Positions 17,438 to 58,573 of a stretch of DNA of 64,000 nucleotides are shown piece after piece. The notes beneath the pieces are model-generated. The model made no database searches. It saw only the letters and a program-made list of their open reading frames with translations, and was not told the origin of the DNA. Each line of letters opens with the position of its first letter. Position 1 is the stretch's first letter. Made by a program: the position numbers and the translations under genes. The DNA lies in assembly GCF_057098645.1 (NCBI RefSeq), contig NZ_CM169472.1. One strand, written 5' to 3'.

Positions 17438-17451
17438 AGGAGAACAACACC

Positions 17452-19785: not shown

Positions 19786-19792
19786 CCCACCT

Positions 19793-19817
19793 GACCGGCA
19801 TCTGCCGGTCTTTTTTT
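19793..19817 (+). terminator. Intrinsic terminator downstream of alpha
   Basis: gaccggc-atct-gccggtc hairpin followed by TTTTTTT. Confidence 0.7.
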
Positions 19818-19830
19818 ATCCCGACATCCC

Positions 19831-20125: not shown

Positions 20126-20321
20126 TTTTTTATGTGGATAAAAGATGCACTGGTTTGGATCCGAGCTACGGATCCAAACTTACTGATTAAAAATGATTTA
20201 ACTTTCCGATTTATTGATGGGCTGAAAATAGATTGGTCAGAAAAACAGTGGGGGCACAAAAGGGGGCATATTTCATTGTTGTGTTTTATTATTTGTTTTT
20301 TATCATTAACTTATTTTGATG

Positions 20322-24564: not shown

Positions 24565-24641
24565 TGATATCCCAGGCAGTGAAATAATTGCAATCATGCT
24601 CGCAAATTTTCTGCTGTTCAAGCCTGCAAGTGAAGATCCAT

Positions 24642-24914
24642 TGCTGTGTTGAGGGATCAAAAGACAACAAAAACTTATTGAAGAAATAATCTTCTGCTTT
24701 TTTGTCGAAATAATAGGCATTGATCTTGTCTATAGCTGCTAAATATTCTCCAGCCTCGTTGAGATCTTCAAAATAGCCATTGAAGATGTTCTGGTTAACA
24801 CCGCCAGTAACATAAGCCTTGCCGCTGTGTACAAAAGTCACATTACCCGCCATGCCCATCGGCGCGTGCGACATCAATTTATTGTTTTATTCATTGTGAC
24901 TGTCTCCTGTCTAC
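24642..24914 (-). pseudogene. Rearranged nanM fragment (internal codons fused to the nanM 5' leader)
   Basis: About 240 bp nearly identical to nanM 57959-58200 (MSHAPMGMAG..FDPSTQQW) joined directly to about 30 bp matching the nanM RBS/leader region 58541-58573; lacks the first about 148 codons and the 3' part. Confidence 0.7.
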
Positions 24915-38100: not shown

Positions 38101-38462
38101 ATTACAACTCTCGCCAACACGACGCTCTCTATAACGCGTGGCTTAATGAGGAAGATCGTCAGCAGGTTGTGACCACTTTACTTGAAGAAGGATATCTGGG
38201 GCCTGCGTGGCCGGGAGCAATTAGCTGGTTAACGGGGGATAACCAGAGTACGGAGCATGGACGAGAACTGACAGTCACCTTCAGCGATGGCAGTCAGCAT
38301 TATGTCCTGCTCGACATGGGGCTTAGCTACTGGCGCTGTATTGAAGATACCTTCTTTGATTTTGCCCTGCGAGTACCGCAGCAAGTTGAACGGCTGGCAA
38401 ACACGCGAGCGCGAGCTGTTGCCCCGGGTAATGACCTTAGGAGTTATATTATCGCTGGATAA
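32148..38462 (+). CDS. Giant DEAD/DEAH-box helicase with C-terminal Cys-rich (DUF1998-like) region; DruE-like
   Basis: About 2100 aa; motif I SSGTGSGKTECF, motif II VLDEAHSY, motif III TSAT, motif VI QRAGRAGRRGE at about aa 1130, cysteine clusters CRKCGAG..CSHC and CDKFCHHC. Start ATG 32148 (AGGAG 10 nt upstream); an in-frame ATG at 32139 is alternative. Confidence 0.75.
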   Translation: MDVQQLHYAPLLNQLHQRAVRSVVSQLALRSKSLTHYLESQYFQPPGQEGSLLADPVFESTFGWMPADETMEDLRDKLISSPLVDALSKAPVPFRHQLTAWRTILEDKKSLLVSSGTGSGKTECFMVPVLEDLIRQQKSTRQSLTGTQAIFLYPLNALINSQQERLREWTRGFKGKIRFALYNGETRHTKYEIQEDQLKVPEQALSREAIYEAPPSIMVTNTTMLEYMLIRRKDAPIIEKSQGMLKYIVLDEAHSYIGSQAAELALLLRRVMQAFNVGPGTDKPVQIIATSATIGEDSPEGNKELAKFVADLAGVTERDVKVVRGYRQIPRVSESLIRHEYPTSLTSLKSLSPQDLYQQLCHYRVAQQLRQALTHPGRQAVRLSELLNVARRTWPDINHRELLQLLDLMARSREGELAFTPLRMHGFIRTLAGLWACSNKQCSHKAHELNQSDWPFGQVWFEQRQYCDCGAPVFEVLRCSGCGSAYLSAKEEMRGDGTNWLVAQPAAAEVDEFALDVDVYSEDEDNDELDNNSQFDRLIASDGEKYIISLEETTAGKIDSEAQKHYEINLLRPESRGEGRNNSFACVCCGDTQRKNNPLFRPLRLGAPFFLNEIIPTLLEFSPLPQTREEQLGPFNGRRLLTFTDSRQGTARISARLQQDADKATLRALCYQELANITEPSAKLSPAHCALLEKVISQFSVLPLKNSIDALKKAMAANEELSPTDIQALKIIEPMVSSLSTEHAEAMQILQANSGNQQKKTMSWQTLSEQLVGSVDLADRMRGSFKELSGLDLTKQQFADFCLYSEFGRRPKNAWTLESLGLVAIHYPFIDKVTTCPQDWKTLLPDPDKQLAEWRNLLKITLDFFIRENSAVFYENEQYPRWMGARFPVKMLQGPDKKNKGQKRDQLWPQIRDRHYNRVIKLLIAVFPAIQPEQAHWKSLVNHLMIEVWDAIRPCLRQFESGYQLDIKQQAEFYSPKQVWRCPYTRRALDVTLLGYSPYLPGSKEIAPEKAVLIEMPELPVRHWRLSGGGEIAREERLEWLESNALIQHAREEGLWSTRSDRLALKDSWYRLEEHSAQRTPEQNQFNEKQFKSGKVNVLNCSTTMEMGVDIGGMSLVAMNNVPPAPANYLQRAGRAGRRGESASAAITLCKNTAHGMEVFKDPLWAFNTTASAPRVRFGSSSIVQRHVNAQVLGLFLRAEVPDATKLSCKWFFEGDESQCLRFLHWLNHQADELADKLKRLTQGTVLMSLTATQLLTRTQAMMQQVDIRWRSQLAILLENIEALKADNSAWEETPAGKAIAYQLRDYRGAYLFSKLISEAFLPGHGFPVGVVNFNYLTADELEKRRAIKATQADPNEGGESFSRRIEKLPSRDLPTALREYAPGADVVLGGKVYRSSGIMLGKVLASGQELSGDHHIPWFWHCRKCGAGATSTTHPVECSHCKADIQQLDVKRYLQPVGFATDIRYQAHNDVSMPAQLPWKDPRVLVPSSVWVSLPDAGLGRYRFSHSGELFHFSEGEFGHGYAICLSCGRAESQTQPQRTPENLKNPERENTHYLLRGGSNDRQGSNKLCHGHVHKDLWLGYSSRTDMVELQLNDDNGLLIRDEVAARSLAVALREGLAHKLGIENTELGVTTQQARDINGYTGYSIFIYDNNAGGAGYAVQLIDHWADVFNYARKLLDCSCDKFCHHCLLSYDSQHYVNRLDRHHALTLLTNVRLQRLNLAPEYQYFGDGSRVETNPLSLRIAQCLNSEIYDSCSLVLAGPQEQWDFAQWPLFKELLQFASSGGNVELLVATPLENLTDSSRHQLSALAAMPGGRLQVKSIATAQLMQGKGRWLAQVTREGQSQQWAADDSATVAPGELWGQSASSPVVTLKGTSGKTFSGQTLSAEDLLPALPTGAVRINLCEQLDGPLEGFGSRFWSLVTQQHAGWKQAFTRHKEITHVEYSDRYLNSPFTARLLGEILTELVEQGMAERASLTVCVKKLDYNSRQHDALYNAWLNEEDRQQVVTTLLEEGYLGPAWPGAISWLTGDNQSTEHGRELTVTFSDGSQHYVLLDMGLSYWRCIEDTFFDFALRVPQQVERLANTRARAVAPGNDLRSYIIAG

Positions 38463-41546: not shown

Positions 41547-44500
41547 ATGGCGCTGGTCGGTATTAATAACGAAAACGAATTTTACTCTAACCACTATTTG
41601 GGTGAGGTTTTCACCAGTGATATCCGCGATGTGCTGGAACCCTGGATAGCCAAGGAAAATGCAGCGCGTGAAGCGGAGCGTGCCGCTCGTGAACAGGGCA
41701 AAGACGTGGAGCCGGGATACCGCGCTCCGTGGAACCAGTTTAACAGTCTGGCGACTGAGTTTTTCCGCAAACTTGCCGAGCACGAAAAACAGCGTCAGAT
41801 CCCGCAGCGTCTGGCCGATCAACGTAATCGCTGGCAGCCATTGTTAAAGGCGCTGGGCTACGAAATTACGCCACAGATCCAAATGCTGGATGACGATACA
41901 CCGCTGCCGGTACTGGCGCGTTACAACAGCACTGACGGTAGCCCGTGGCTGTGGATTGTTGAAGCACACGATCAGGAAGAAGGAACGCTGGATCCGCTGG
42001 CGCTCTCCTTACTGACCGCGCAATTCCCGGCGGATACCGACAAACATAAGCGCGACAGCCTGCGCAAAAAAGCCAACGGTGAATATCGCAGCTGGCAGGA
42101 TCTGCTCTCTACGGCGGTCTTCACCCAAAATGAACCGCCGCGTTTTGTGCTGCTGCTCGGTAACCGTCAGCTCTTGTTGTTGGACCGTACTAAGTGGGCG
42201 CAAAACCGTCTGCTACGTTTTGATTTTGAAGAGATTTTAAGCCGTCGTGAAACGGATACGCTGAAAGCGACTGCGGTGTTGTTACATAAAGATTCTCTGC
42301 TGCCGGGCAGTGGGGCACCTTATCTTGACTCGCTGGATGACAATTCGCACAAACATGCGTTTGGTGTTTCGGAAGATCTGAAATATGCCCTGCGCGAAAG
42401 CATTGAGTTGCTGGGCAACGAAGCGATGCATTATCTGATCGACCGTGGCCTGGCAAACTATACCGGTAACCGTGCGGTGGACCCGGATGAACTGAGCCGC
42501 GAATGTCTGCGTTACATGTACCGCCTGCTGTTCCTGTTCTACATTGAAGCGCGCCCGGAGCTGGGTTATGCGCCAATGACTGCCAAAACTTATCTACAGG
42601 GCTACAGCCTGGAAACGTTGCGCGATCTGGAGATGATCCCGCTGACCAGCGAAGAAGATCGCAACGGGCGCTACTTCCACGACAGCCTGAATATGCTGTT
42701 TAAACTGGTGCGCGAAGGCTACAACGGCGGCGTGAAAATGCAGAGTGACCTGGAGAGCGGCGACCGGATCACCATCCATAGTCATCAGTTCAGCGTCCCG
42801 CGTCTGGAAAGTCATCTGTTTGATGCCAACAACACGCGCATTCTTAACCGCGTGGTATTCCGTAACGAAACCCTGCAACAGATTATCCAGGCGATGTCGT
42901 TAAGCCGCCCGGCCAAAGGGCGCTTTAACCGCCGCGGACGTATTTCTTATCGCCAGTTGGGTATCAACCAGTTGGGTGCGGTGTATGAGGCGCTGCTCTC
43001 CTATCGTGGATTCTTCGCCAGCGAAGACCTCTACGAGGTGAAGAAAGCCGGGGAAGAGTTTAACGAGCTGGAGACAGGTTACTTCGTCAGTAAGGATGAG
43101 ATTGGCAAATACCACGAAGACGAGAAGGTCTACGAGAAAGACGGCAGTCTGCGCATTCACCGCAAAGGCAGCTTTATCTACCGTATGGCCGGGCGCGACC
43201 GTGAGAAATCTGCCTCTTATTACACCCCGGAAGTGCTGACCCGCTCACTGGTTAAATATGCCCTGAAAGAACTGTTTAAGGAGCAGATTGATCCCATTAG
43301 CGATCCGCACGCCAAAGCTGATGCCATCTTAAACCTCACCGTGTGCGAACCGGCGATGGGCAGCGCGGCGTTCCTTAACGAAGCCATCAACCAGCTGGCG
43401 GAAGCGTATCTGTTCCACAAGCAGCAGGCGGAAGGTCGCCGTATTCCGCAGGATCGTTACACCCAGGAGTTACAGCGGGTGAAAATGTACATTGCCGACA
43501 ACAACGTTTTCGGCGTGGACTTAAACCCGGTGGCGGTGGAACTGGCGGAAGTGTCACTGTGGTTGAACGCCATCAGTGGCGATGCCTTTGTACCGTGGTT
43601 TGGTTACCAGCTGCACTGCGGTAACTCACTGGTGGGCGCGCGCCGTCAGGTGTTCAACAAGAGTGAACTGACCTACAAAAAAGCCAAAGATCCGAGCTGG
43701 CTTAACAGCGAGCCGGTCGAACTGGCGATGAACACGCCGCGTGAAGAGACGCAGATTTTCCACTTCCTGCTGCCCGACGGCGGTATGGCTAACTACAGCG
43801 ATAAAACTGTTAAGCAGCGTTATCCGGATGACTTCAAAGCCCTGGACAGCTGGCGCAAAGAGTTTATTAAAAGCTTTGCCGGGCATGAGATTGCTGATGT
43901 GCAGCGTATCAGCGAAAAGGTGGAAGCTCTGTGGAACACTTATCGCCAACAACTTAAAGCAGAACGTCTGAAAACCGCCGACAGCTACCCGGTGTGGCCG
44001 GCAGAAAACAGCGAGCAGACGCGTTCTTCGCTGAGCAGTAAAGATGAAACCTTTAGCGGTCGTCTTGAAGATAACAGCGCCTACCAGAAGCTGCGTTGGG
44101 TAATGGACTACTGGTGCGCGCTGTGGTTCTGGCCGATCGACAAAGCCGATGAGCTACCGGATCGCGGCACCTGGTTGTTTGAGATTGAAACCCTGCTCGA
44201 CGGGATTGTAATCACGGAAAAAGTCACTGAAGTTGCGGAGCACACCACCGGCGATCTGTTTGCCGAAGAAGGCCTGCTGCGAGAAGAGTCTTCGCTGTTT
44301 TCCGTTGCTGGTCGTCTGAAAACCGAGGTGTTGTTCCGTCATTTGCCGCGTCTGGCGATTGTCGATGCCCTGAGAAAGCAGCACCGTTTCTTCCACTGGG
44401 ATCTGGAGTTCTGCGACCTGTTTGCCGAGCGCGGCGGTTTTGACCTGATGCTCGGAAACCCGCCGTGGCTGAAAGTGGAATGGCAGGAAGCGGGCGTGCT

Positions 44501-46457
44501 GGGTGATTACGAGCCGGAATTTGTGCTGCGTAAGCTGAGCGCCTCGAAGCTGGCAACGTTGCGTGTTGATACCTTTAACCAGATCCCGGCACTGGAAGCG
44601 GCCTGGCGCAGCGAGTATGAAGGCTGTGAAGGGATGCAAAACTTCCTCAATGCGCAGCAGAACTACCCGGTACTAGCAGGACAAAAAGCGAATTTGTATA
44701 AATGTTTTCTACCTCTGGGGTGGCGCTTAGGGGCGCAGAAAGGTGTCGTAGGGTTCCTGCATCCGGAAGGAATTTATGAAGACCCGAAAGGGGGAAAACT
44801 GCGTGGGGCGGTCTATCCAAGGTTAAGAGCTCATTTTCAGTTTCAAAATCAGCATATGCTTTTCCCTATCGGTGACAGGGTTAAGTTTAGTATTAATATC
44901 TACACCGCGTTTGTAAGTGATCATATTGGCTTCATTAGTATTGCAAACTTATTCTCGGCAAAAACGATTGAACTGTGTTTGTCGCATGATGGAACTGGAG
45001 AAGTGGGTGGTATTAAAGATGACGAAACCGACTCATGGAACGAATCAGGACACCAAAGCCGCATATTGAAAGTATCGTTAGAGCGGCTTTCCTTGTTTGC
45101 TAATTTGTATGATGAGCTAGGTATACCTGCGATTGAGGCCAGATTACCTGCTCTTCATGCGGATCACTTGGTGTCTGTGCTTGAGAAATTTGCTAAGCAG
45201 CCAACTAGATTGAGTGACTTAGAAAAAGACTATTATTCAACCCAACATTGGAACGAAGTTAATGCTCAGGATGATGGGATAATCAGACGCGAAACCCAAT
45301 TCCCGGAAGACGCATCCCAATGGATTTTGTCTGGTCCGCACTTCTATGTTGGAACACCGCTTTATAAAACGCCGAGAGAAATTTGCACAGAGAAAGGACA
45401 TTATGACTGCCTGGACTTGCTAACTCTGCCCGACGACTATCTGCCGCGCACTAACTATATTCCAGCATGTGATGCACAGGAGTATGCAAAGCGCACCCCA
45501 CGGGTTTCGTGGAAAGAACAGGATGAAGACGAGCCGAGGAAGGTGACGGATTATTATCGTCATATAAATCGAAGAGCCATTGGTTGTTCTTCGGAGCGAA
45601 CTGCTATAGGTGCAATTATACCCAAAGATGTCGCTCATATAGATGGGGGATTCTCATTAACTTTCAAAGACCCTAAACAACTGGTGATTTTTAATACCAG
45701 CTTCAATTCCTTACCTTTTGACTTTGTAATTAAAACAACGGGTAAAAGCGATTGTCGGGCGGAATTAGTAAAAATTTTACCAATGCTTTCAGATATAGGG
45801 ACAAGGCTATTTGCTCGGGGCTTAGTTAATAATGCAATAACAGCGCATTACTCCGATCTCTGGCAATCCTGCTACACCCCAGACTTCAACACCCAGCGTT
45901 GGAGCCGCGATCTCCCGCTGCTGCCCCAGGATTTCTTCGCCAATCTGACCCCAGAGTGGCAGCGTAACTGCGCCTTACGCTCCGACTACAGCCGCCGTCA
46001 GGCGCTGGTGGAAATCGACGTACTGGTGGCGCAGGCGCTGGGGTTAACCCTCGAAGAGCTGCTTACCATTTACCGTGTACAGTTCCCGGTTATGCGCCAG
46101 TACGAAGCGGACACCTGGTACGATCAAAACGGTCGTATTATCTTTACCCCAAGCAAAGGGCTGGTGGGCGTTGGCTTGCCGCGTACCGCGCGTAAAGCTG
46201 ACCTGAAAAACGGCTTTGTCTTTAACGTCGACAGCCCGGACTGGACCGGCGGTGACTGCACCGATCAAGCCATCGGCTGGGATGATGTCAAACATCTTAA
46301 AACTGGTACCGTCAGCGTCACCTTTGATGACTATACCCGCAGCGACGAAGGCGAGCGCCGTACCGTCACCTGGCAGGCACCGTTTATCAAGCCGGATCGC
46401 GAAGACGACTACAAAGTGGCCTGGGCGTTCTTTGCACAAGATAAGGAGAGCGCCTGA
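41547..46457 (+). CDS. Large N6-adenine DNA methyltransferase (Eco57I/DrmMI/PglX-like)
   Basis: 1636 aa; SAM-binding motif CEPAMGSAAFL, catalytic NPPW (LMLGNPPWLKV); start 2 nt after the SNF2 stop. Confidence 0.8.
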   Translation: MALVGINNENEFYSNHYLGEVFTSDIRDVLEPWIAKENAAREAERAAREQGKDVEPGYRAPWNQFNSLATEFFRKLAEHEKQRQIPQRLADQRNRWQPLLKALGYEITPQIQMLDDDTPLPVLARYNSTDGSPWLWIVEAHDQEEGTLDPLALSLLTAQFPADTDKHKRDSLRKKANGEYRSWQDLLSTAVFTQNEPPRFVLLLGNRQLLLLDRTKWAQNRLLRFDFEEILSRRETDTLKATAVLLHKDSLLPGSGAPYLDSLDDNSHKHAFGVSEDLKYALRESIELLGNEAMHYLIDRGLANYTGNRAVDPDELSRECLRYMYRLLFLFYIEARPELGYAPMTAKTYLQGYSLETLRDLEMIPLTSEEDRNGRYFHDSLNMLFKLVREGYNGGVKMQSDLESGDRITIHSHQFSVPRLESHLFDANNTRILNRVVFRNETLQQIIQAMSLSRPAKGRFNRRGRISYRQLGINQLGAVYEALLSYRGFFASEDLYEVKKAGEEFNELETGYFVSKDEIGKYHEDEKVYEKDGSLRIHRKGSFIYRMAGRDREKSASYYTPEVLTRSLVKYALKELFKEQIDPISDPHAKADAILNLTVCEPAMGSAAFLNEAINQLAEAYLFHKQQAEGRRIPQDRYTQELQRVKMYIADNNVFGVDLNPVAVELAEVSLWLNAISGDAFVPWFGYQLHCGNSLVGARRQVFNKSELTYKKAKDPSWLNSEPVELAMNTPREETQIFHFLLPDGGMANYSDKTVKQRYPDDFKALDSWRKEFIKSFAGHEIADVQRISEKVEALWNTYRQQLKAERLKTADSYPVWPAENSEQTRSSLSSKDETFSGRLEDNSAYQKLRWVMDYWCALWFWPIDKADELPDRGTWLFEIETLLDGIVITEKVTEVAEHTTGDLFAEEGLLREESSLFSVAGRLKTEVLFRHLPRLAIVDALRKQHRFFHWDLEFCDLFAERGGFDLMLGNPPWLKVEWQEAGVLGDYEPEFVLRKLSASKLATLRVDTFNQIPALEAAWRSEYEGCEGMQNFLNAQQNYPVLAGQKANLYKCFLPLGWRLGAQKGVVGFLHPEGIYEDPKGGKLRGAVYPRLRAHFQFQNQHMLFPIGDRVKFSINIYTAFVSDHIGFISIANLFSAKTIELCLSHDGTGEVGGIKDDETDSWNESGHQSRILKVSLERLSLFANLYDELGIPAIEARLPALHADHLVSVLEKFAKQPTRLSDLEKDYYSTQHWNEVNAQDDGIIRRETQFPEDASQWILSGPHFYVGTPLYKTPREICTEKGHYDCLDLLTLPDDYLPRTNYIPACDAQEYAKRTPRVSWKEQDEDEPRKVTDYYRHINRRAIGCSSERTAIGAIIPKDVAHIDGGFSLTFKDPKQLVIFNTSFNSLPFDFVIKTTGKSDCRAELVKILPMLSDIGTRLFARGLVNNAITAHYSDLWQSCYTPDFNTQRWSRDLPLLPQDFFANLTPEWQRNCALRSDYSRRQALVEIDVLVAQALGLTLEELLTIYRVQFPVMRQYEADTWYDQNGRIIFTPSKGLVGVGLPRTARKADLKNGFVFNVDSPDWTGGDCTDQAIGWDDVKHLKTGTVSVTFDDYTRSDEGERRTVTWQAPFIKPDREDDYKVAWAFFAQDKESA

Positions 46458-49400
46458 TGCTGCCGTCCGTTGTCAGTCGGCAGGTCGCCGACAGCGTTGC
46501 CGCCTTTTTACGGGCGGCGTTCCCGCTAAACAGCCCGCTGTTTAACGGTGAGAATAACGATAATGTCTCAATGCTGGAGCAATTTCTGGCCCAGCCCGAA
46601 ACGCTGCTGAAAGGACCATACCTTTCCGCCCAGTTGCCGTTTCGTAAAAGTGACTTACCACTGAATTTCTTCCCTAATCTGACGCTGCCGTTCCCGCCGC
46701 ACGCGCATCAGGCCCGGGCATTTCAGCGTCTGGGAAGCGACGCGCCACAGCCGACACTGGTCGCTACCGGTACCGGCTCCGGTAAAACAGAATGCTTTAT
46801 GTTCCCGCTGCTCAACCACTGCGCGGGCGCGTCACATGCCGGGGTTAAAGCGATTATCATCTACCCGATGAACGCCCTGGCAACCGATCAGGCCAGCCGT
46901 TTCGCCAAAACCATCGCCAGCGATCCACAACTGCATGGCAAGGTGACCGTCGGCTTGTTTGTCGGCGACAGCGAAATCGAACCCAGCAAGAAAATGTCGG
47001 CAGAAAAGGTCATTACCTGCAAGCACACGCTGCGCGAAAGCCCGCCGGACATCCTGTTGACCAACTACAAAATGCTCGACTACCTGCTGATGCGCCCTGG
47101 CGATCAGCCGCTCTGGCGTTACAACCAGCCCGGTTCATTGCGTTACCTGGTCGTGGATGAATTGCATACGTTTGATGGCGCGCAAGGGTCGGATCTGGCC
47201 TGTCTGGTGCGACGTCTGAAGCATCACATAGGTGTGGATAACCAACGATTCGCCTGCGTCGGGACATCAGCTACCGTCGGCGACGAACTGGGGCAACTGC
47301 TCGATTACGCAAAAACAATCTTTGACCAGCCGTTTACCGATGACGCCGTTATTCGCGAAGATCGCTACACGGCAGCGGAGTACTTGCAGGATTATGCCAT
47401 TGCGTACAGTCAGTATCCGGGGCCGGAGGCCGCTTCGGCCCTGGACCCGCAGAGTTACTCTACCCCGGTAGCGTATCTCAACGGGCAAATCCCTTTGTGG
47501 TTCCCCGACAGCGATTTGCAACTCCCGGACGATCTGGAGAGCGACGACGGGCGTGAAAAGCGTATTGCGCTGGGGTCACTGTTACGCCGCCACAGCGTGA
47601 TGCATGTCTTACTCCATGATCTGCAAGGCGGGATCCTCTCTGAGCGAGAGTGTCTGGAAAATCTCCAGGTCATGCTGGCAGAAAGCGCCGACCATGCCCG
47701 ACGCGTGCTGCAAAGCATTCTGGCGCTGATCGCGCAGGCACGTCTCGAAGTACCGGAAACGGAACACGATCGTCAAAAACGTCTCCAGGCGAAGAAAGCG
47801 CGTCCGGTGCTGCCGTTTGTGCAACTGCGCTCCCAGTTGTGGCTTCGTGAGATGCGTCGTCTGGTCGCCAGCGTGGCGAAAACGCCGCGACTGGTGTTTG
47901 CCGATGATGTGGCGGTGGAAGACCGCGAACACTATTTGCCGGTTATCCACTGCCGTGACTGCCATGCAACCGGCTGGGCCAGCCTGCGTCATGGGCAAAG
48001 CGTTCAGCTGGAAACAGACCTCGACGGCATTTATCGCCAGTTCTTTGAAAAAGGGCGCTCCATCGTCCTCGCTTTCCCGGATAATAACGAAAAAGCGGTC
48101 AGTGGCGCACACCAGAAACTGTGTCCTACCTGTCTGAAACTTAACCGACAGTCCAGCGTCCAGTGTGGACATTGCGGTCATACGGAACTGTTGCAGGTAC
48201 TGATCCCGGATATGCTCAAAGAGCGTAAGGACGAGCTGGAGTTTGCTAATGAATGCCCGTACTGCAACAGCAAACAGGGGATTTCGATCCTGGGGTCACG
48301 GGCTGCCAGTCTGTCGGCGGTGATGATTCACCAGCTTTATGGCAGCCAGTTCAACGAACATAAAAAGCTGATTACGTTTTCTGACTCGGTACAAGACGCC
48401 GCGCATCGTGCCAGCTTCTTTACTGCCCGAACCTGGCCGCTGATGATTCGTGGGCAAATCGCCAGTGTTCTTGGCGAAAAAGAGACATTACCGCTGGATG
48501 CGTTCGCGGCGCGTGTTTGCCAACAAACGCGTGAACGTTCACCGGACGATGCTCATTTTGCAGCGAACTTCATCGCACCAAATATGCAGTGGCTGAATGA
48601 TTATCAGACGCTGAAAAATGAAGGCAAACTGGCGGAGAACTCCGATCTGCCGGAGCTGGTTTCCCTGCGCCTCGACTGGGAGGTGTACAGCGAATTTACC
48701 CTGCGCGCGCGTATCGGACGTACGCTGGAAGCCACCGGTTATGCCGTTGCCGGAGTGGATAAAGATCGCTTTAATCCGGCAATTACCGCCCTGCATCAAC
48801 AGCTTTGTGAAGAGCTGGGTGATGAGATGTCCGGTGTGAGCGTCGAGCAGGTAGCGCACCTGGCGCTGGGGGTTATCTGGTATCAACGCCAGGCCGGGGC
48901 CGTTATGCATCCGGCGTTCGAAAGTTATCGCCGTGATGGCACGACCTTTATGATGACGCAAAAAGAGCGTACATCGCGCTATATGCCTTCTATCGGTCCG
49001 AAAACGCGTAAACCGGCTTATGCGTCGTTTGAAAAAATTAATGGTTTCCATCGCCTGATTGGCGCGAAGTCTAACCCCAGTTGGTATCAGCATTGGATCA
49101 ATCGCACGCTGAGTAACGGCAATAATCTGTTTATCAGTAGCGTTGCGGAAACAGTGTTACGACGCCTGTTTACGGCGTTGAAAATAGCCGGAGTAGTAAA
49201 AGATTTTGACACCAAAGGGCGTGAAGCCTGGGGACTGGTGCCTTCGGCGCTGGTGGTGAGCCGTGACGTCGTTCAGCTTAATTGCTCATGTTGCCGTGAG
49301 GTTGTCCGGGCTCCGGCCGATCAAGGCTGGCAGTGGCGTAATGCGCCTTGTCTCTCTTTACGTTGTGAAGGTCGTTACCTAGAAGTCGACAATATGGCGA

Positions 49401-52400
49401 CCTGGCGTTGGGAGAACATGGACATCGCGCGCGTGCAGGGCGCAGAACACACGGGGCTGCTTAGCCGTGAAGATCGCGAAGCCACCGAAAAATCGTTCTA
49501 CCGCGGCAACCAACCGTGGAATATCAACCTGTTGTCGGCAACACCGACGCTGGAGATGGGTATTGACGTTGGGGATCTTTCCACCGTTTTACTCTGTTCT
49601 GTCCCACCTGCTCAGGCCAACTACTTGCAACGTATTGGTCGCGCCGGTCGTAAAGATGGTAACGCGTTAAACATTACCGTGGCAGAAGGGAACCCGCACG
49701 ATCAGTTTTTCTTTGAAGAACCACTGGAGATGATGCAGGGCCAGGTGCAGGCTCCTGGCGTCTTCCTCAATGCAACGGCTATTCTCGAACGCCAGCTGGC
49801 AGCTTTTTGTATGGATAACTGGGTGAAAACCGGTGTACCAGAATCCGCTATCTGTAAAAACGTCAAACAGATGCTGGATGAGCTGGAGTTCGGGCGTAAA
49901 TCGGGTTTTCCGTATAACTTACTGCGATATATCGAACAGCATCATGCGGAGATTGCTGCGCAATTTACGGCAATCTTCCCCGATCTTGCCGCAGAAACTC
50001 GCCAACAGCTGTTGTCTTATCTTCAGGGCGCGCCAGGACAACGCTCGCTGGTGCAGCGTATCGAAGAAGCGTTAAAACTGCTGGTGGAAGATCGCAAATC
50101 TTTGCGCTCACGCATCGATAAACTCAAGCGCAGTATCGATAAACTGGAGAACGCGCCGCGCGATCAAAACTTTGATAGCGATATGCGCGAGTTAACTTCG
50201 GAACGGCAGGCGCTGATGGCGCTGGTCAATCAAATCAACAATAAGCAAACGCTGAATTTCCTCACGGATGAAGGTCTGCTGCCTAACTACGCCTTCCCGG
50301 AAGCCGGTATTACGTTACGTTCTGTGCTCTGGCGGCGTAAAGAAGGCGGGGAAGCACGTGAATATCAAAACACCACTTTCGAATATGAACGCCCGGCATC
50401 AACGGCGCTGGCTGAGCTGGCTCCGCTGAATAATTTCTATGCCGGTGGGCATAAAGTTGAAATTGAGCAGATAGACCTGAAGGTCTCTGAGCCGGAGAAC
50501 TGGCGTATCTGTAGCCACTGTAACTACAGCGAAAATATCGACCAGACGGGCGACCAGCATAAATATTGCCCGAAATGTGGCACACCGGGGTGGGCCGATG
50601 CCGGACAAAAAACCACGCTGCTGAAACTTCGCCAGGTTTATGCCCGCGCCAGCGCACGTGATAGCCAGATCAGCGACGAGAGCGACAGCCGTGAACCTGC
50701 TTTCTTCCAGCGTCAGCTATTGGTTAGTTTCGAAAAAGAAGATGTATCGGCGGCATACGCGATTGAGGAAGGCGAAGTTCCGTTTGGTTTTGAATTTTTA
50801 AGCAAAGTCACCCTGCGGGATATCAACTTCGGCAAAATGGCGGATGATGCCAATGAGTTGATGATTGCCGGAGAAGCGAAGAAGCGAACCGGGTTTAAAG
50901 TTTGCCTCGGGTGCGGCATGGTGCAGCGTCCTCGCGATCATGAACCACGTCATGATTTGAGCTGCAAATATCGCACGGAACCGGAAAAGGCGAAGTTCGA
51001 AGATTATCTCTACCTCTATCGCCAGCTGGAGTCAGAAGCGTTGCGTATTCTGCTCCCGGTAAGCAGTTACAGTAATGACCGTGTCGTGGAGGCTTCTCTT
51101 GGGGCGGCGATCCAGCTCGGTCTTAAACATTACTTCAAGGGGAATGTCGATCACCTGAAAGGCGTTGTGTACCGCGAGCCGGAAAATGAAGGCGAATCCT
51201 GGCGGCAGTATCTGGTGATTTACGATACCGTCCCGGGGGGGACTGGTTCTCTTAAAGAACTGATGCGCACTCCCGACAATTTGCTGAAATTACTTGAACT
51301 GGCCTATCAGGCAATAGTGGAATGCAGTTGCAACAATGATACGCATAAAGATGGTTGTTATCGTTGCGTTTACGCTTACCGTGACCGTGGGCGCATGAAG
51401 TATGTCTCCCGCGATCAGGCGCGTCTCTTGCTGGCGAAAATTTTGCAGGCAAGAGATTCGATACGGGTAATTGATTCCATCAAAAACATTTCCCTCGAAG
51501 CCATGATGGGCAGTGAGCTGGAAAAACGGTTTATTAGCTGCCTGCAAGAAAATAAAAACCTGATTGTCAGTCGCAGTTACGCGCATCAGGGCGCTGGGTG
51601 GATTATTAACACCCGCAGCGAACCGATGATGAGCTGGCATCTTAAAGCTCAGGTGGATTTAGGCGCTAAAGAGGCGGTGGGGATCCCTTGTCGCCCGGAT
51701 TACGTGCTATATCCGCTTATGCAGTCTGATGCCATTAAACCGGTGGTTATTTTCCTTGATGGCTTTGCGTTCCACAAAAATAGCGTCGCAGAGGATGTGC
51801 AAAAACGCCAGGCGATTCGGGATAGCGGTAATTTCTGGGTGTGGACAGTCACGTGGGCCGATCTCAAAGAGCCTGGGCTTAAACATGTTCAGGATGTCCT
51901 GGGACTTGGGCATAACCCGGATATGAAACAGCCTAAGTTTTATAACCTGTTTCATGATACCAACTTTGCGGCCCTTGAAGCGTCGTTCCGGGAACGCAAC
52001 AGTTTTGCACTGCTGCTGGATTATCTCGCCGATCCGGGCGGAAGAACGCAGTTATGGCAGAGAATGGCTGCTGCACATGCCTGGGTGTGGTTGGATGTGA
52101 AGAAGTCACAGGACGCGGGAACGAAACAAAAGTATGCCTATGAAATGCAGGAAAACGCGCCAGCCTGGCGGCTAGCAGAGCTTTTGCCAGACGAACCGTT
52201 TGTCTTTGGTGGTTTACTCGATAGCTGTAACTCATCGCAGCAATTTATTGAGCTGGCTTCGGTGTTGCCACAACAAGCCATTAAACCGACGACCAGCGTC
52301 GCACAAATGCGCAGCTGGCTGCGTTTGCATATCTGTTTTGACGATCGCTATACGCAGGATGACGGTTATGAAGCGGGACTCAATGGCTTCTGGCGACTGG

Positions 52401-52798
52401 TAAACCTGTTACAGTTCCTGCCGGATATGACCTTTACCAGCCGTAAAGCCGTGCATTTACCGCAGGAAAGCGTTGACACTAAAGTTTCGGCAACGCCAGA
52501 GGCAGTACCAGAGACTGATGAGAGTTGGGCTGAGATTATTGAGTTTGGCTTATTAAGCGCTGAAGAGATCGCGTTGCTTCAGTCTCATTCTCTCTCTGCG
52601 CCGACTCTCGGCTACGAATTGCAAAATGATGAAGGTGAAATTATTGCGGAAGCCGATCTCGCCTGGCCATCACAAAAATGGGCATTGATTATTGATAATC
52701 AAGAATTTATTCCATTATTCACAACCAGGGGTTGGCACGTTGCATTCGGGCCAATTGACGAAAATACATTGCAACATCTGTCCGGAGGTGACAAATGA
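46457..52798 (+). CDS. Second giant DEAD/DEAH-box helicase with C-terminal Cys-rich (DUF1998-like) region; DrmA/DrmB-fusion-like or DruE-like
   Basis: 2113 aa; motif I ATGTGSGKTECF, motif II VVDELHTFDG, motif VI QRIGRAGRKDG at about aa 1060, zinc-ribbon-like CSHCNYS..CPKCG and CSCNN..CYRC; ATG overlaps the MTase stop (TGATG). Confidence 0.75.
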   Translation: MLPSVVSRQVADSVAAFLRAAFPLNSPLFNGENNDNVSMLEQFLAQPETLLKGPYLSAQLPFRKSDLPLNFFPNLTLPFPPHAHQARAFQRLGSDAPQPTLVATGTGSGKTECFMFPLLNHCAGASHAGVKAIIIYPMNALATDQASRFAKTIASDPQLHGKVTVGLFVGDSEIEPSKKMSAEKVITCKHTLRESPPDILLTNYKMLDYLLMRPGDQPLWRYNQPGSLRYLVVDELHTFDGAQGSDLACLVRRLKHHIGVDNQRFACVGTSATVGDELGQLLDYAKTIFDQPFTDDAVIREDRYTAAEYLQDYAIAYSQYPGPEAASALDPQSYSTPVAYLNGQIPLWFPDSDLQLPDDLESDDGREKRIALGSLLRRHSVMHVLLHDLQGGILSERECLENLQVMLAESADHARRVLQSILALIAQARLEVPETEHDRQKRLQAKKARPVLPFVQLRSQLWLREMRRLVASVAKTPRLVFADDVAVEDREHYLPVIHCRDCHATGWASLRHGQSVQLETDLDGIYRQFFEKGRSIVLAFPDNNEKAVSGAHQKLCPTCLKLNRQSSVQCGHCGHTELLQVLIPDMLKERKDELEFANECPYCNSKQGISILGSRAASLSAVMIHQLYGSQFNEHKKLITFSDSVQDAAHRASFFTARTWPLMIRGQIASVLGEKETLPLDAFAARVCQQTRERSPDDAHFAANFIAPNMQWLNDYQTLKNEGKLAENSDLPELVSLRLDWEVYSEFTLRARIGRTLEATGYAVAGVDKDRFNPAITALHQQLCEELGDEMSGVSVEQVAHLALGVIWYQRQAGAVMHPAFESYRRDGTTFMMTQKERTSRYMPSIGPKTRKPAYASFEKINGFHRLIGAKSNPSWYQHWINRTLSNGNNLFISSVAETVLRRLFTALKIAGVVKDFDTKGREAWGLVPSALVVSRDVVQLNCSCCREVVRAPADQGWQWRNAPCLSLRCEGRYLEVDNMATWRWENMDIARVQGAEHTGLLSREDREATEKSFYRGNQPWNINLLSATPTLEMGIDVGDLSTVLLCSVPPAQANYLQRIGRAGRKDGNALNITVAEGNPHDQFFFEEPLEMMQGQVQAPGVFLNATAILERQLAAFCMDNWVKTGVPESAICKNVKQMLDELEFGRKSGFPYNLLRYIEQHHAEIAAQFTAIFPDLAAETRQQLLSYLQGAPGQRSLVQRIEEALKLLVEDRKSLRSRIDKLKRSIDKLENAPRDQNFDSDMRELTSERQALMALVNQINNKQTLNFLTDEGLLPNYAFPEAGITLRSVLWRRKEGGEAREYQNTTFEYERPASTALAELAPLNNFYAGGHKVEIEQIDLKVSEPENWRICSHCNYSENIDQTGDQHKYCPKCGTPGWADAGQKTTLLKLRQVYARASARDSQISDESDSREPAFFQRQLLVSFEKEDVSAAYAIEEGEVPFGFEFLSKVTLRDINFGKMADDANELMIAGEAKKRTGFKVCLGCGMVQRPRDHEPRHDLSCKYRTEPEKAKFEDYLYLYRQLESEALRILLPVSSYSNDRVVEASLGAAIQLGLKHYFKGNVDHLKGVVYREPENEGESWRQYLVIYDTVPGGTGSLKELMRTPDNLLKLLELAYQAIVECSCNNDTHKDGCYRCVYAYRDRGRMKYVSRDQARLLLAKILQARDSIRVIDSIKNISLEAMMGSELEKRFISCLQENKNLIVSRSYAHQGAGWIINTRSEPMMSWHLKAQVDLGAKEAVGIPCRPDYVLYPLMQSDAIKPVVIFLDGFAFHKNSVAEDVQKRQAIRDSGNFWVWTVTWADLKEPGLKHVQDVLGLGHNPDMKQPKFYNLFHDTNFAALEASFRERNSFALLLDYLADPGGRTQLWQRMAAAHAWVWLDVKKSQDAGTKQKYAYEMQENAPAWRLAELLPDEPFVFGGLLDSCNSSQQFIELASVLPQQAIKPTTSVAQMRSWLRLHICFDDRYTQDDGYEAGLNGFWRLVNLLQFLPDMTFTSRKAVHLPQESVDTKVSATPEAVPETDESWAEIIEFGLLSAEEIALLQSHSLSAPTLGYELQNDEGEIIAEADLAWPSQKWALIIDNQEFIPLFTTRGWHVAFGPIDENTLQHLSGGDK

Positions 52799-54909
52799 CG
52801 GTGCAAACGCCCAAGGTGGCACTTTCTGATGGTTTTCTGGGCGCATTCGCGCGGATCCCAAAGGCACAGCAAAAAAAGGTGCAGGAATTCATCTCCAAAT
52901 TCCGTCAGGACCCGACCAGTAATGGACTTAACTATGAAAAGATCCACGATGCGCGCAGTAAAAATGTCCATTCGGTGCGAATCGATCAAACTTATCGCGG
53001 CATTGTTCTGAAACCTGAACAGGGTGCCCTGTATATGCTGATGTGGGTGGATAAACACGACGAAGCATACGACTGGGCGCGGCGGCATGATTGTTCGATT
53101 CACCCGGTTACCGGCGCGATTCAGGTCATTGATATTAGCTATATCAAACCGGCACCGGAAGCGGTGGTTGATAAACCGAAACTCTTCGCGGCTTACAGCG
53201 CGGAACAGATTCTGGCCCTGGGCGTGCCGCCTGTCTTTATTGATCAGGTGATGGCGCTTACCGATGAAGCCGGGCTTAATCAACTTGAAAGCATAATGCC
53301 AGCAGAAGCCTGGGAACCTCTGCACTGGCTGGCAGAAGGGCTGGATTACCAGGAAGTGCTGGAAGAGTTTAACGATCATCATGATGAGCCTGTTGATACC
53401 AACGACTTTATGGAGGCGATTGAACGAAGTAAACGTCGCTTCCATGTCGTTGAAAATGAACAGGAGCTGTTGCAGATGCTTAATGCGCCTTTAGAAAAAT
53501 GGCGTGTATTTCTGCATCCGAGCCAGCGAAAACTGGTGGAGTCGCCCGCTAATGGTCCGGTACGAGTACTGGGCGGTGCAGGTACAGGGAAAACGGTTGT
53601 TGCGATGCACCGTGCGCGGTGGTTATCTCAGCGTCTGGCAGATAAACCCGGTAAGAAGGTACTTTTCACGACCTTTACGCGTAACCTGGCGGCAGATATT
53701 CGCGCTAATCTCCAGCGGTTGTGTACGCGAGAAGAGATGGCGCGTATTGACGTCGTTAACATTGATGCCTGGATGAGCGACCAACTAAAACGCCACGGTT
53801 ATGATTTCCGCGTGGTATACGACAGCGATGAAGGGCGACGCAAATGCTGGAACTATGCCTTGCAGCAGGCACCTGCCGAACTGGGGCTACCTGACAATTT
53901 CTATGCTGAAGAGTGGCAACGCGTTGTCCAGCCAAATGCGGTTTACACCCGGGAGGAATACCTCAAAGTCAGCCGGGTTGGACGTGGTACAGCGTTATCC
54001 CGTATTCAACGGGCGAAAATCTGGCCAGTCTTTGAAGAATTCAGAGCACAAATGGCGCGTGCCAAACTGCGCGAAATGGGCGATGCCATGCATGAGGCTA
54101 TTGTTCTGTTTAAAGAAAAACAGGTTCAACTACCTTATAGCAGTATTGTGGTCGATGAAGCTCAAGATATCGGTGCCCCGGCATTTACTCTTATTCGCAG
54201 CCTGGTTCCCGAGTCGCCCAACGATCTGTTTATTGTCGGGGATGGGCATCAGCGTATTTATCGCAATAAGGTCGTTCTTGGTCAGTGTGGTATTAACGTC
54301 CGTGGTCGTCGCAGTAAAAAATTGAAGATTAACTATCGGACCACAGAAGAGACGCGTCAATTTGCTGTTGGGCTGTTAACTGGTGTGAAGGTTGATAACC
54401 TCGATGGCGAAGCGGATACCAGTAATGATTATTTGTCATTACTGCACGGGGAAAAGCCCATGATTACGCATGCGGCAGATTTCAAAGAAGAGGCTGCAAC
54501 GCTCGTCAAGCAAATTCAGGCATTGCTGGCGAATCAGGTTCGTTCTCAGGATATCTGCATTACTGCGCGTACTAAACATGCTTGTGACCGCTACGCATCA
54601 GCACTGAATGACGCCGGAATTGAGACATTTAATTTAGGCAATGATAGCGGTGACAGCGATGCACGCCCTGGCGTGCGGGTTGCAACGATGCACCGTATTA
54701 AAGGGCTTGAGTTCCAGTATGTGTTCCTGGTGGGGATTAACGAAGGCGTTGTGCCGGAAATAAAAGCATTAGCATCCGATGATCCCGTTGAACAGCGTGA
54801 TGCATTATTTAATGAGCGCGCGTTACTGCATGTGGCTGCAACCCGTGCCGTAAAAGGGCTGTTTGTTTCATCATCTGGTGTCCCTAGTCCGCTATTAGTG
54901 GCTGACTGA
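52795..54909 (+). CDS. UvrD/Rep-like superfamily 1 helicase with about 230-aa N-terminal domain of unknown function
   Basis: 704 aa; Walker A GGAGTGKT, motif II VVDEAQD, C-terminal TMHRIKGLEFQYVFL; start overlaps the upstream stop (ATGA). Confidence 0.75.
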   Translation: MTVQTPKVALSDGFLGAFARIPKAQQKKVQEFISKFRQDPTSNGLNYEKIHDARSKNVHSVRIDQTYRGIVLKPEQGALYMLMWVDKHDEAYDWARRHDCSIHPVTGAIQVIDISYIKPAPEAVVDKPKLFAAYSAEQILALGVPPVFIDQVMALTDEAGLNQLESIMPAEAWEPLHWLAEGLDYQEVLEEFNDHHDEPVDTNDFMEAIERSKRRFHVVENEQELLQMLNAPLEKWRVFLHPSQRKLVESPANGPVRVLGGAGTGKTVVAMHRARWLSQRLADKPGKKVLFTTFTRNLAADIRANLQRLCTREEMARIDVVNIDAWMSDQLKRHGYDFRVVYDSDEGRRKCWNYALQQAPAELGLPDNFYAEEWQRVVQPNAVYTREEYLKVSRVGRGTALSRIQRAKIWPVFEEFRAQMARAKLREMGDAMHEAIVLFKEKQVQLPYSSIVVDEAQDIGAPAFTLIRSLVPESPNDLFIVGDGHQRIYRNKVVLGQCGINVRGRRSKKLKINYRTTEETRQFAVGLLTGVKVDNLDGEADTSNDYLSLLHGEKPMITHAADFKEEAATLVKQIQALLANQVRSQDICITARTKHACDRYASALNDAGIETFNLGNDSGDSDARPGVRVATMHRIKGLEFQYVFLVGINEGVVPEIKALASDDPVEQRDALFNERALLHVAATRAVKGLFVSSSGVPSPLLVAD

Positions 54910-54951: not shown

Positions 54952-55861
54952 TATATAACCGTTCTGGCAACTGGCGATATTTATATTGCTTAGCTCCCAA
55001 CAGCCAGACAATATCAACTTAGAAATTATATTCGCTTATGCGGTTTGCATATTGCACAGTACAACCTGTTTTCTCTATATCTAACGTAACGTCAGGATGT
55101 GGATGATTTTTGGATGGGGTGACACACTGGACAAATATAGCTGGCACGAAAAGGCTGGCATTTCCAGCTGACCAATAGTCTCTGGAACCATGATGATGAT
55201 AAAATAAATATCTTAAGTTTTAAACGTATGATGCCAGGATTACCAGAATTATAAACGAATATATTAGTTCTTTTCTATTTGTTCAGGAGGGGTATAAAAA
55301 TTGCAATTGTTAATAGTATCGTCAGGACGATAAAAAGATAATCATGACAAAGGAAATTGAACTAAAATGATTGACATTTTACAGGTGGTTTGTCAGTGAT
55401 TTCTTGTTATTCATAATTTATTTTCCGTAAAAAATAGTAAGGTGATCACCTGAATAAAGGTAATCTCATATTTTGATGAGTATAGTGATTTTTTATTTCT
55501 CTGGTGAGGAATGAAGGAAATATCAATGGTAAGGAACGTCAGAGAATCAGGGAAAATTAAGGTCCCTCAGAAACACAATGCCGTTCACTTAAGCGGGGCG
55601 GCACTGTGTTTCACAGGATAACGGGTTTTTGATATCTTAACCGCCCTCGCCCTTGATGGTCGGGGGCGTTTTGTTATGAACACCACTTCCAGAGCCCCCG
55701 CAGATGCTCCAGTCGTTTCGGGATAGTCCCCGGTGACGCCGTGTTTCCCAGCACTATCATTTCTGTCACGATAAACTGGAACGCGAACTTAAAGCTGATC
55801 TCTGACGCCGCTTTTGTTGCCTCACGCCGTATCGCTCCGCTGGTAGGCGCGGTCATGGCAT

Positions 55862-56349
55862 TCAGTAGAATGTGATTCCCAGATTCATTAACGCCACCAG
55901 ACGCATGACGGGGTAGGCGCTCTGCCGCTCAGTGGATGTGTTGGCAGAGCCATAATATTCACGCAGCTCGGGTTCATCAGGTGTCCTGAACTGTGCGCCA
56001 TCAATGGCAAAAAGTTGCAGGCCGTGCCAGTCATCCTGCAGGTAACGTTCCGCGCCCCATGTCTGTGCGGTCTGGCGGAAGAGCCATTCCACCGGGGCGG
56101 CCCCCACGCGCTGACGCGCCTGGGTGACAGCGCTGCGGGCGCCAGCAGGTTCATCCCCGCTTCGCCATCCACGCTCAGGTTAAGACGACGAACGGTCGCA
56201 TGAGCAGAAAGCGTCAGGAAGTGCTGTATCCACTCGGTGGGAAGGTGCTCTGCAAACAGTTGCGTAGAGGGTGGTGGCATAAGCGGATGGTCACTGAAAG
56301 TGGTATAAGAAAATGGCCCCTTGTTGTGGAAGTCGTTATAGTGCCGCAC
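55862..56349 (-). pseudogene. IS4-family DDE transposase remnant (frameshifted fragments)
   Basis: Two overlapping short frames; ..WLFRQTAQTWGAERYLQDDWHGLQLFAIDGAQFRTPDEPEL.. has the layout of the IS4-family N-terminal catalytic region; no intact ORF or terminal inverted repeats found. Confidence 0.4.
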
Positions 56350-56402
56350 GCCGGAGGAGTTAAAAGCGCTGATGGATGCGAATAAATCAAATTAATGAAC
56401 GC

Positions 56403-57383
56403 TCACTTTTCGCGCCAAAACTGCAAAATTGCTTCTACAAACCTGTCAGAAATAATCCCCCGACGGGCTGCCGCGCTGAAATGACTGCTTCGCAGTGCCG
56501 TCGTCCAGTTCTCCGGTGACCGGTACGCTGAACCGTAATATCCCGTGCTTAAATCGTCCGGATCTTCATCAGGCGCGTTCGTTAGCCCTCTTGCACCTTG
56601 TTGCTGGAAGTCGACGAAAATAATATTAGCTAAAACATTATTTTGATAATTGCCATAAATAGCTTCATACGCATGAGGGAAATTTTCTTTCCAGTACCAG
56701 GTGGTATCGCCGCAAAACCACGGCGCGTCAGTAATATTATTAAGCTGAGAATGGTATTGTTTTAGATCCCTACGAAAGGCTTCAACCATATGATTAAAGT
56801 GTTGAGGATGTGACGCGTAGTCACTGGTCATTAAGTCAAATTCGCCTTGCATCCAGCATACGCCGAGGAATTTGTTCTGCGGATTTTTTGTCAGTGCGGC
56901 TCGCGTTCTGCTGACTAAATCCTGGTATAGCGGAGTATCCGTTCCCCAACGACAAGCATCATGGCTGGCTCCGTGCCGTTCTGAATATGTCCCTTCGCTG
57001 CCTGCGGTAAAAGCCGATCCGCCACGGCAACATGGAACGATGAGAACCCCTGCGTTAACAGGAATAAAGGGCAGTAATTTCCGTGCAATATGCAGTGCCT
57101 GGCCAACGGTGCCGTACTGTGTTTGATGATTCGTTGCCAGAGGATGGTGATAACCCTGCATATCCTGAACATCGTGTGGGCAGTGAGTCATTGGAATAAT
57201 GTCGTTAAAGTGACATGACGGGCCTCCGGGATGCGTATGCGCAAATCTCGCTAATTGTTTAATTCTGGGATGAGGCGCATCTTCCCTGTCCGGTAATGGC
57301 AGTCCTTCGCCATACGCCATGGCATTAGACTGACCAGCAACGGTAAGAACATAGTAATAATCAGGCGATATTATTGCGTTCAT
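56403..57383 (-). CDS. nanS: 9-O-acetyl-N-acetylneuraminate esterase NanS
   Basis: MNAIISPDYYYVLTVAGQSNAMAYGEGLPLPDREDAPHPRIKQLARFAH... matches NanS (YjhS) as recalled; ATG at 57381-57383. Confidence 0.9.
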   Translation of the reverse strand: MNAIISPDYYYVLTVAGQSNAMAYGEGLPLPDREDAPHPRIKQLARFAHTHPGGPSCHFNDIIPMTHCPHDVQDMQGYHHPLATNHQTQYGTVGQALHIARKLLPFIPVNAGVLIVPCCRGGSAFTAGSEGTYSERHGASHDACRWGTDTPLYQDLVSRTRAALTKNPQNKFLGVCWMQGEFDLMTSDYASHPQHFNHMVEAFRRDLKQYHSQLNNITDAPWFCGDTTWYWKENFPHAYEAIYGNYQNNVLANIIFVDFQQQGARGLTNAPDEDPDDLSTGYYGSAYRSPENWTTALRSSHFSAAARRGIISDRFVEAILQFWREK

Positions 57384-57447
57384 ATAAATTTCGCGTAATT
57401 GAAATGACAAATTGATAGCAGGGCCCCTTTACTGGGGCCCTGAAGCG

Positions 57448-58554
57448 TTAGTTTTGTACTGTGACTTTATTATCCTTCACAGAGATCAAAACTGAATCCG
57501 TCACCGCTTTGCCGCCTGCAGTTTCACCGCCAATAATCAATAGACTATTATTCCAGGGCAATGATACTCCGTAAGCCCGACCTTGCGATAATTCACCCGA
57601 TTTATCCCATTTCCCGTTATGCCAAAGATGAATATCAGTGCTATATGATTTTTTCAGGCCTTCATGCGCATAGTTCTTACCGTTTTGGTAATTTTCTCGT
57701 GAACCTTTGAATCCGGCCCCTCCGGCAAATATAAGAGAATCATTGCTTATCCCCGCAAAACCGCCAGCGACGCCATCTGGTGATGAGACGGGAGCAAGCT
57801 TATTCCATTTTAAATTATTACCGGTGAAATCAAGTTCAAATACGGCATCCGTTCGCAATCCTGGTTTGGCTTCGCCATTAATAAGCCAGGTTTTATCACC
57901 TTTATTCACAACCGCCGCACCAGCCGTCCCGTACCAGGGAGATTCGCCAGCGTAACTCCATTGCTGTGTAGAGGGATCAAAAGACAACAGAAACTTATTA
58001 AAGAAATAATCTTCTGCTTTTTTGTCAAAATAGTGTGCATTGATTTTATCTATAGCGGTTGAATCTTTTCCAGTTTCGTTGAGATCTTCAAAATAGCCAT
58101 TGAAGATATTCTGGTTAACACCGCCAGTAACATAAGCCTTGCCGTTGTGTACAAAAGTCACATGGCCCGCCATGCCCATCGGCGCGTGCGACATCAATTT
58201 AACCCAGCTATTGGTTTTGGGGTTGTATTTGTGTACGTCATTAAATACCTGAGTCAAGCCCTCGCTGTTTTTGCCAATGCCGCCAAACACATACAGATTG
58301 CCATCAATAAATGCAGAGGTTGCTTGATCTCTTGGTCCGCCAGGGAATGCAGCTAACGCTGTCCATTTTTTATCTTTGGCCTGTGTATCCAGCTTGTACC
58401 ATGCCGTACCTGCGCTACCTAAACCAATGTAGACAGTGTCGTTATCAATTGCTCCGGTACCACTTTTAAATGGCACAGGAGTTTCCGGTAATACAGACGC
58501 GTTTGCGGCAAATGAAGCCATCATGATAGCAAGCGCCGTTATTGTTTTATTCAT
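57448..58554 (-). CDS. nanM: N-acetylneuraminate mutarotase NanM (Kelch-repeat periplasmic protein)
   Basis: MNKTITALAIMMASFAANASVLPETPVPFKSGTGAIDNDTVYIGLGSAG... with signal peptide and Kelch repeats; ATG 58552-58554. Confidence 0.9.
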   Translation of the reverse strand: MNKTITALAIMMASFAANASVLPETPVPFKSGTGAIDNDTVYIGLGSAGTAWYKLDTQAKDKKWTALAAFPGGPRDQATSAFIDGNLYVFGGIGKNSEGLTQVFNDVHKYNPKTNSWVKLMSHAPMGMAGHVTFVHNGKAYVTGGVNQNIFNGYFEDLNETGKDSTAIDKINAHYFDKKAEDYFFNKFLLSFDPSTQQWSYAGESPWYGTAGAAVVNKGDKTWLINGEAKPGLRTDAVFELDFTGNNLKWNKLAPVSSPDGVAGGFAGISNDSLIFAGGAGFKGSRENYQNGKNYAHEGLKKSYSTDIHLWHNGKWDKSGELSQGRAYGVSLPWNNSLLIIGGETAGGKAVTDSVLISVKDNKVTVQN

Positions 58555-58573
58555 TGTGACTGTCTCCTGTCTA

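Follow-up and report, generated by a model that had tools for sequence, protein, structure and literature searches.

The transposase-like open reading frames next to nanS in the 64-kb stretch of Escherichia coli chromosome analyzed here (the window, to which all positions refer unless stated otherwise) are very probably what is left of a non-functional insertion sequence of the IS4 family (IS4 group), of the same type as insZ/ISZ' of K-12 and as an intact 1430-bp element. The relic is the rightmost feature of a 31.7-kb defence-island segment. Since the joint at which it is cut off lies inside the IS and no second copy is present, there is no sign of the IS having assembled or relocated the island.

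Identity of the transposase-like fragments

The initial annotation had described a degenerate IS4-family transposase, and this assignment is borne out by protein family models, by an intact relative of 445 aa and by the relatives' inverted repeats and target duplications. Two overlapping ORFs on the minus strand, 55862-56107 (81 aa) and 55888-56349 (153 aa), the union of which gave the coordinates 55862-56349 of that annotation, derive from a single IS4-family transposase gene, of which they are pieces in different frames. Pfam scans of the single ORFs were nearly blind (best Nterm_IS4 E 0.03), and frame repair was therefore needed for the family to be recognized. The frame-repaired window copy matched NCBIfam NF033592 (IS4 family transposase) with an E value of 2.3e-16 and 59.8 bits, a score that falls under the full-length cutoff of 115 bits as expected for a fragment, as well as Pfam Nterm_IS4 (PF13006) with an E value of 3.8e-11. 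A near full-length paralogue from a ColV-type plasmid (L003), also frame-repaired, reached 200.7 bits against NF033592 (cutoff 115) and carries both Pfam domains, Nterm_IS4 (PF13006, 93.2 bits) and DDE_Tnp_1 (PF01609, 53.5 bits). At the DNA level the window relic aligned to the intact element with an E value of 1e-156. The IS4-family match of the fragments is far beyond chance.

DNA matches to pseudogenes annotated as 'IS4 family transposase' were obtained in thousands of E. coli genomes, and RefSeq lists the relic locus in strain RM9872 as 'transposase domain-containing protein, frameshifted'. The relic is an ordinary, already annotated pseudogene. For the intact copies, the name assigned by PGAP is the generic 'IS4 family transposase' only.

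Intact and degenerate relatives

The protein search led to intact relatives of 445 aa with both Pfam domains (Nterm_IS4 and DDE_Tnp_1) present, which were found near gnd in E. coli and on IncF (F-type) plasmids. The transposase P0001 (445 aa), encoded in the gnd-ugd region of E. coli, belongs to an element of 1430 bp (L006:2918-4347) with terminal inverted repeats of 18 bp, CAATGCCGATCAGTTAAG and CAATGCCGTTCACTTAAG, that match at 16 of 18 positions, and with an exact 11-bp target duplication. P0001 has the DDE catalytic triad, which a functional member of the IS4 family would carry complete and with the Y-2-R-3-E-6-K signature. The terminal repeat at the end retained in the window is identical in sequence to that of this element, and the two share 93.6% DNA identity over 771 aligned nt in a pairwise alignment; unlike the relic, the P0001 element is complete, with both repeats, the target duplication and an open frame of 445 codons. 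We regard it as the presumptive parent type of the window relic.

The closest relative is the insZ/ISZ' pseudogene of K-12, located between tdk and adhE, which is of the same IS type as the relic and about 93% identical to it in DNA over the shared blocks. Like the relic it is internally deleted and frameshifted, but it keeps both terminal repeats as well as a target duplication of 10 bp that lies within a terminator hairpin, and its deletions (17, 418 and 5 nt), at a different locus, are independent of those in the window. Canonical IS4 (InsG) belongs to the same family and group and has the Nterm_IS4 plus DDE_Tnp_1 architecture of the intact relative, but with a protein identity of about 38% to that relative it is a different IS. 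The target duplication of canonical IS4 is long (>10 bp).

The relatives of the relic have exact target duplications of 10-11 bp at all four independent insertions (L006, L014-L017 and L002), with the sequences CAGCTAGACTG, CCCGCTTCGCG, CCGGCATAGCG and CCCTTCTGGG. A direct duplication of about 10-13 bp is expected of the IS4 group; in the window copy, the flank on the truncated side is lost. The duplications of the relatives lie within predicted stem-loops, which are GC-rich and clear at three of the four sites (gnd-ugd, a site near traM on an F plasmid and the tdk-adhE intrinsic terminator); at the fourth, on a ColV/Klebsiella plasmid (CCGGCATAGCG), the predicted hairpin is weak. The pattern suggests that the ISZ'-type element may target GC-rich terminator-like hairpins, four sites being too small a sample for a firm claim.

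ISCro3 of Citrobacter rodentium is connected to the window copy only through a database label: one source gives the name 'ISCro3 transposase' to P0022, a homologue from Salmonella that is damaged by a frameshift and shares 66% identity with the reconstructed protein. The literature found on insZ and ISCro3 consists of inventory tables, in which ISZ'/insZ is listed for K-12 (PMC3032704) and ISCro3 as an IS present in multiple copies in C. rodentium (PMC3072379).

Extent and anatomy of the relic

The span 55862-56349 first assigned to the element is part of a real relic, but the true extent, as defined by homology to three independent copies, is larger (Table 1). Its edges were set by three-way alignments with copies that lie in unrelated flanks, namely insZ (L002, tdk-adhE) and the plasmid copy (L003). 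The window copy keeps 54% of the 1430-bp element.

The initial annotation had also reported no detectable terminal repeats. This holds for the pair, which is incomplete with one end gone from the window, but not for the other repeat, which is intact, has exactly the sequence found at that end of the 1430-bp element and matches the other end of that element at 16 of 18 positions. An inverted-repeat search of 55300-56600 returned no terminal inverted-repeat pair and only a hairpin at 55565-55617. This hairpin is a 19-nt inverted repeat with 84% complementarity (55565-55583 and 55599-55617) that spans the intact IS terminus, one arm consisting of the flank sequence CCTCAGAAACA and the first bases of the terminal repeat and the other of the subterminal sequence CGGCACTGTGTTTCACAGG. 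A second, terminator-like hairpin just inside the intact end (Table 1) faces transcription entering from the left flank and is conserved in all IS copies aligned; it may act as a terminator.

Table 1. Positions in the window of the IS relic and its parts, of nanS and of the defence genes in the adjoining segment
Feature	Position	Strand	Remarks
Zorya II (zorE, zorB2, zorA2)	within defence content 25104-54909		
Druantia III, DruH	28789-32148		E = 0 in PADLOC
Druantia III, DruE	32139-38462		E = 0 in PADLOC
DrmD-like SNF2 helicase	38686-41544		
Type IIG restriction-modification protein	41547-46457		1636 aa
2113-aa helicase	46457-52798		
UvrD/GajB-like helicase	52795-54909		
Whole IS4-family relic	55576-56348	-	773 bp; element nt 42-1430 minus internal deletions
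Intact terminal inverted repeat, CAATGCCGTTCACTTAAG	55576-55593		18 bp; transposase 3' end, stop codon inside
C-terminal coding remnant (element nt 1151-1430)	55576-55833	-	21-nt and 1-nt deletions; 60-aa and 33-aa ORFs
Terminator-like hairpin and T-run	55648-55677	+	9-pair stem, then TTTTGTTATG
488-nt deletion joint (element nt 663-1150)	55833-55834		second Asp and Glu of DDE triad gone
Middle coding remnant (element nt 303-662)	55834-56193	-	first catalytic Asp (AIDGA); includes 81-aa ORF 55862-56107
87-nt deletion joint (element nt 216-302)	56193-56194		inside Nterm_IS4 domain
5' remnant, leader and N-terminal codons	56194-56348	-	ATA start 56306-56304; 19-nt deletion joint 56299/56300
Truncation joint	56348-56349		element position 42 abuts nanS 3' flank
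Spacer, relic to nanS stop codon	56349-56402		54 nt; common to the majority class B E. coli genomes, not K-12
nanS	56403-57410	-	

Lesions and inactivation

All lesions were counted against the intact 1430-bp element. Element nt 1-41 are gone from the window copy, comprising one terminal repeat and the adjacent palindrome with its 11-bp arms, and the start codon has changed from ATG to ATA. The internal deletions measure 19 nt (element 91-109), 87 nt, 488 nt and 21 nt (1167-1187), and are accompanied by a 2-nt insertion at 56141-56142 as well as by 1-nt deletions at element positions 619, 650 and 1306, the first two of which correspond to 55875/55876 and 55845/55846. Indels of 1-2 nt number five, and frame-breaking indels overall at least seven. 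Since the 21-nt gap is common to the window copy and the plasmid copy L003, it probably reflects a difference between lineages and not decay.

The only catalytic residue left is the Asp of AIDGA; the 488-nt deletion has taken out both the Asp of LFDK (nt 717 of the intact element) and the YHSRWEIEVGFRNLK block, the Glu (RWEIE) being at nt 1023 of the intact element. With its start codon gone, its frame broken at least seven times, the second Asp and the Glu lost and one terminal repeat missing, the copy is dead, unable either to encode a transposase or to serve as a regular two-ended substrate for mobilisation. Residual transcription of the relic, for instance by read-through from nanCMS, is possible. 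Its substitutions relative to the intact element comprise 25 synonymous and 20 non-synonymous changes, so that part of the 6.4% divergence predates inactivation and provides no clock for the date of insertion.

Position relative to nanS and the island border

The relic had been placed directly upstream of nanS, which is not the case: nanS is on the minus strand, and the relic, in the same orientation, lies 54 nt downstream of its stop codon. Its assignment to the right border of the island, on the other hand, was correct. For the junction search, the sequence 56200-57500 was compared with 5426 complete genomes, of which 5040 matched, and the junction classes were read from evenly spaced sample rows. 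The window-type junction with the IS relic was present in about 443 of the 5426 complete genomes at a coverage of at least 80%, with the same relic location and joint in all carriers examined. In about half of the sampled rows (class B) homology begins exactly at 56348, with a fragment of an HNH endonuclease on the left, and in the K-12-type junction it begins at 56400, essentially the nanS stop codon. The truncated end of the relic is thus an exact synteny break relative to other E. coli, which places the relic at the right border of the island.

A 29-aa ORF (56395-56484, plus strand) that is antisense to the 3' end of nanS is the counterpart of YthB, a small protein of K-12. As the ORF begins in the junction-variable region, its N-terminus and upstream sequence differ by island type.

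Genomic setting and the defence-island segment

The window is E. coli chromosome and leads from tRNA-Leu(CAA) (leuX, 5923-6007) through a large variable island to nanS, nanM, nanC and fimB. E. coli O145 RM9872 is at least 99.9% identical to 20321-60093 and 61286-63620 of the window. The 31.7 kb between 24637 and 56348 stand in place of 83 nt of the class B genome STEC316 (L004) and contain, in this order, a nanM fragment, Zorya II, Druantia III, the DrmD-like helicase, the type IIG restriction-modification protein, the 2113-aa helicase, the UvrD/GajB-like helicase and the IS relic (Table 1). The left end of this variable segment is the nanM fragment, with no IS there.

Several further features of the region were noted. 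In the window the type IIG gene reads through as one open frame, whereas it is annotated as frameshifted in RM9872. The nanM fragment (24637-24914) is an internally deleted copy in the orientation of the real gene, with 92% identity to 57957-58201 and a further 36 nt identical to 58539-58574, and is directly preceded by the gene for an HNH-domain restriction endonuclease (23692-24565; phosphorothioated-DNA-binding according to RefSeq). A P4-like integrative element of 14.3 kb (6008-20320) directly follows tRNA-Leu(CAA) and encodes an integrase, a C5 DNA methylase, Psu, Ogr/Delta, Ash and a primase-helicase; an IS21-type IS (istA/istB, approximately 13835-16253) is inserted in it. The P4-like element is missing from O145 RM9872 and its two junctions overlap by about 24 nt, resembling an att-type repeat. 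Near its right end there is a 120-nt direct repeat with 82% identity (19831-19950 and 20012-20131). Relative to RM9872, K-12 and STEC316, the window also has an insertion of about 1.2 kb between nanC and fimB (60094-61288), encoding a 326-aa ORF that is probably the IS5 transposase (InsH); the insertion would presumably be a copy of IS5.

UvrD-like genes are found beside the window copy of the IS and beside the ColV-plasmid copy. Their co-transfer with the IS was considered and rejected, since the proteins are unrelated beyond the family level and their orientation differs.

Age of the relic

The insertion had been described as old, and the comparison with isolate 3702594 (L012) agrees with this: although L012 has diverged from the window, its relic is joined to the nanS flank at the same point and has the deletions of 19, 87 and 488 nt in common with the window copy, next to indels of its own. 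The joint is identical in both, and the 1-nt deletion at element position 619 is likewise common to them; the counterpart of the 87-nt deletion aligns in L012 as 80 + 7 nt (element nt 219-308), with a slightly different gap placement. Among the private indels of L012 are a deletion of 12 nt and the loss of 1 nt inside the terminal repeat, and the window has private indels too. Identity between window and L012 rises from 94.4% in the IS relic through 95.2% in the noncoding left flank and 96.9% in nanM to 98.1% in nanS and 98.5% in the UvrD-like gene. The shared joint and deletions indicate that the relic was already crippled before the two lineages split, and since then it has evolved at the noncoding rate.

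In L012, a uracil-DNA-glycosylase (UDG)-family gene of about 650 bp (L012 3577-4223) separates the UvrD-like gene from the IS relic. This gene is missing from the window, where the joint of its deletion (55408-55421) has a 14-nt overlap.

Origin of the border

We infer that a full element inserted beside defence-island cargo at leuX, next to the UDG-family gene that L012 still keeps. A later event without transposase involvement, either a deletion or an illegitimate recombination, would have cut 41 bp into the left end of the element, and the same event would have joined the relic to the DNA 54 nt past nanS, taking whatever lay between. The palindrome abutting the break point could have favoured breakage. 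From then on the relic would have been subject to neutral drift, and today it appears to have no role beyond marking an old breakpoint.

Two bolder readings, that this IS type targets hairpins and the relic marks a lost terminator, or that its truncated end is the recombination joint by which the 31.7-kb block was captured beside nanS, are rather unlikely.

The initial annotation had suggested that the insertion may have mediated island acquisition or rearrangement. Transposition, an adjacent deletion mediated by the IS or recombination between two copies could indeed have put the defence cargo next to nanS, and that the truncated end is the synteny breakpoint relative to class B genomes to the base, with the relic as the last feature of the variable segment, would fit such a course. 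The anatomy speaks against it: cleavage by the transposase would put the joint at the terminus of the element and not 41 bp inside, and the other end of the segment is the nanM fragment. A BLAST search with the intact element matched 55576-56348 only, and neither a second copy nor an orphan IS end was found in the 64-kb window, so that the two copies or ends around the cargo expected of a composite transposon or an IS-bounded island are absent. The joint is also without microhomology, and we consider an IS-made border unlikely. Deletion mediated by microhomology at 56348/56349 was considered separately and is unsupported, since GTTTA occurs in both putative parents yet is absent from the joint.

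Retention of the fragment for a function of its own might be read from the conserved hairpin at 55648-55677 and from the position of the relic directly downstream of nanS in the same orientation. The fragment would then code, for instance, for a DNA-binding N-terminal part of the transposase, or would act in cis to terminate or insulate transcription of the nanCMS operon or of the YthB-like ORF on the opposite strand. This is most improbable, as the start codon is gone, the breaks in the frame differ between the window and L012, the divergence is that of noncoding DNA and the hairpin belongs to every IS copy rather than to the nanS locus. A search for promoter-like sites pointing outward from the relic, in the direction of the YthB-like ORF at 56395, found none. 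That the relic is a non-autonomous MITE-like derivative still mobilisable in trans by an intact transposase is barely credible, for although one terminal repeat and the subterminal sequences are intact and F-type plasmids of E. coli carry intact relatives, the second repeat is missing from the relic and the whole window, and location and joint are the same in all carriers examined.

Significance

The relic is of little weight in itself, given how common IS relics are at the edges of islands and that RefSeq already flags the pseudogene. Its corrected anatomy means that the IS is not to be credited with assembly of the island. Should the truncated end nevertheless be a recombination joint, the captured block would comprise Zorya II, Druantia III and the helicase plus type IIG restriction-modification cluster, and IS relics would be landmarks of defence-island exchange at leuX. 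Together with the shared deletions, the joint at 56348/56349 is a clean marker for the descent and exchange of the leuX-nanS island among E. coli, including O157 and O145.
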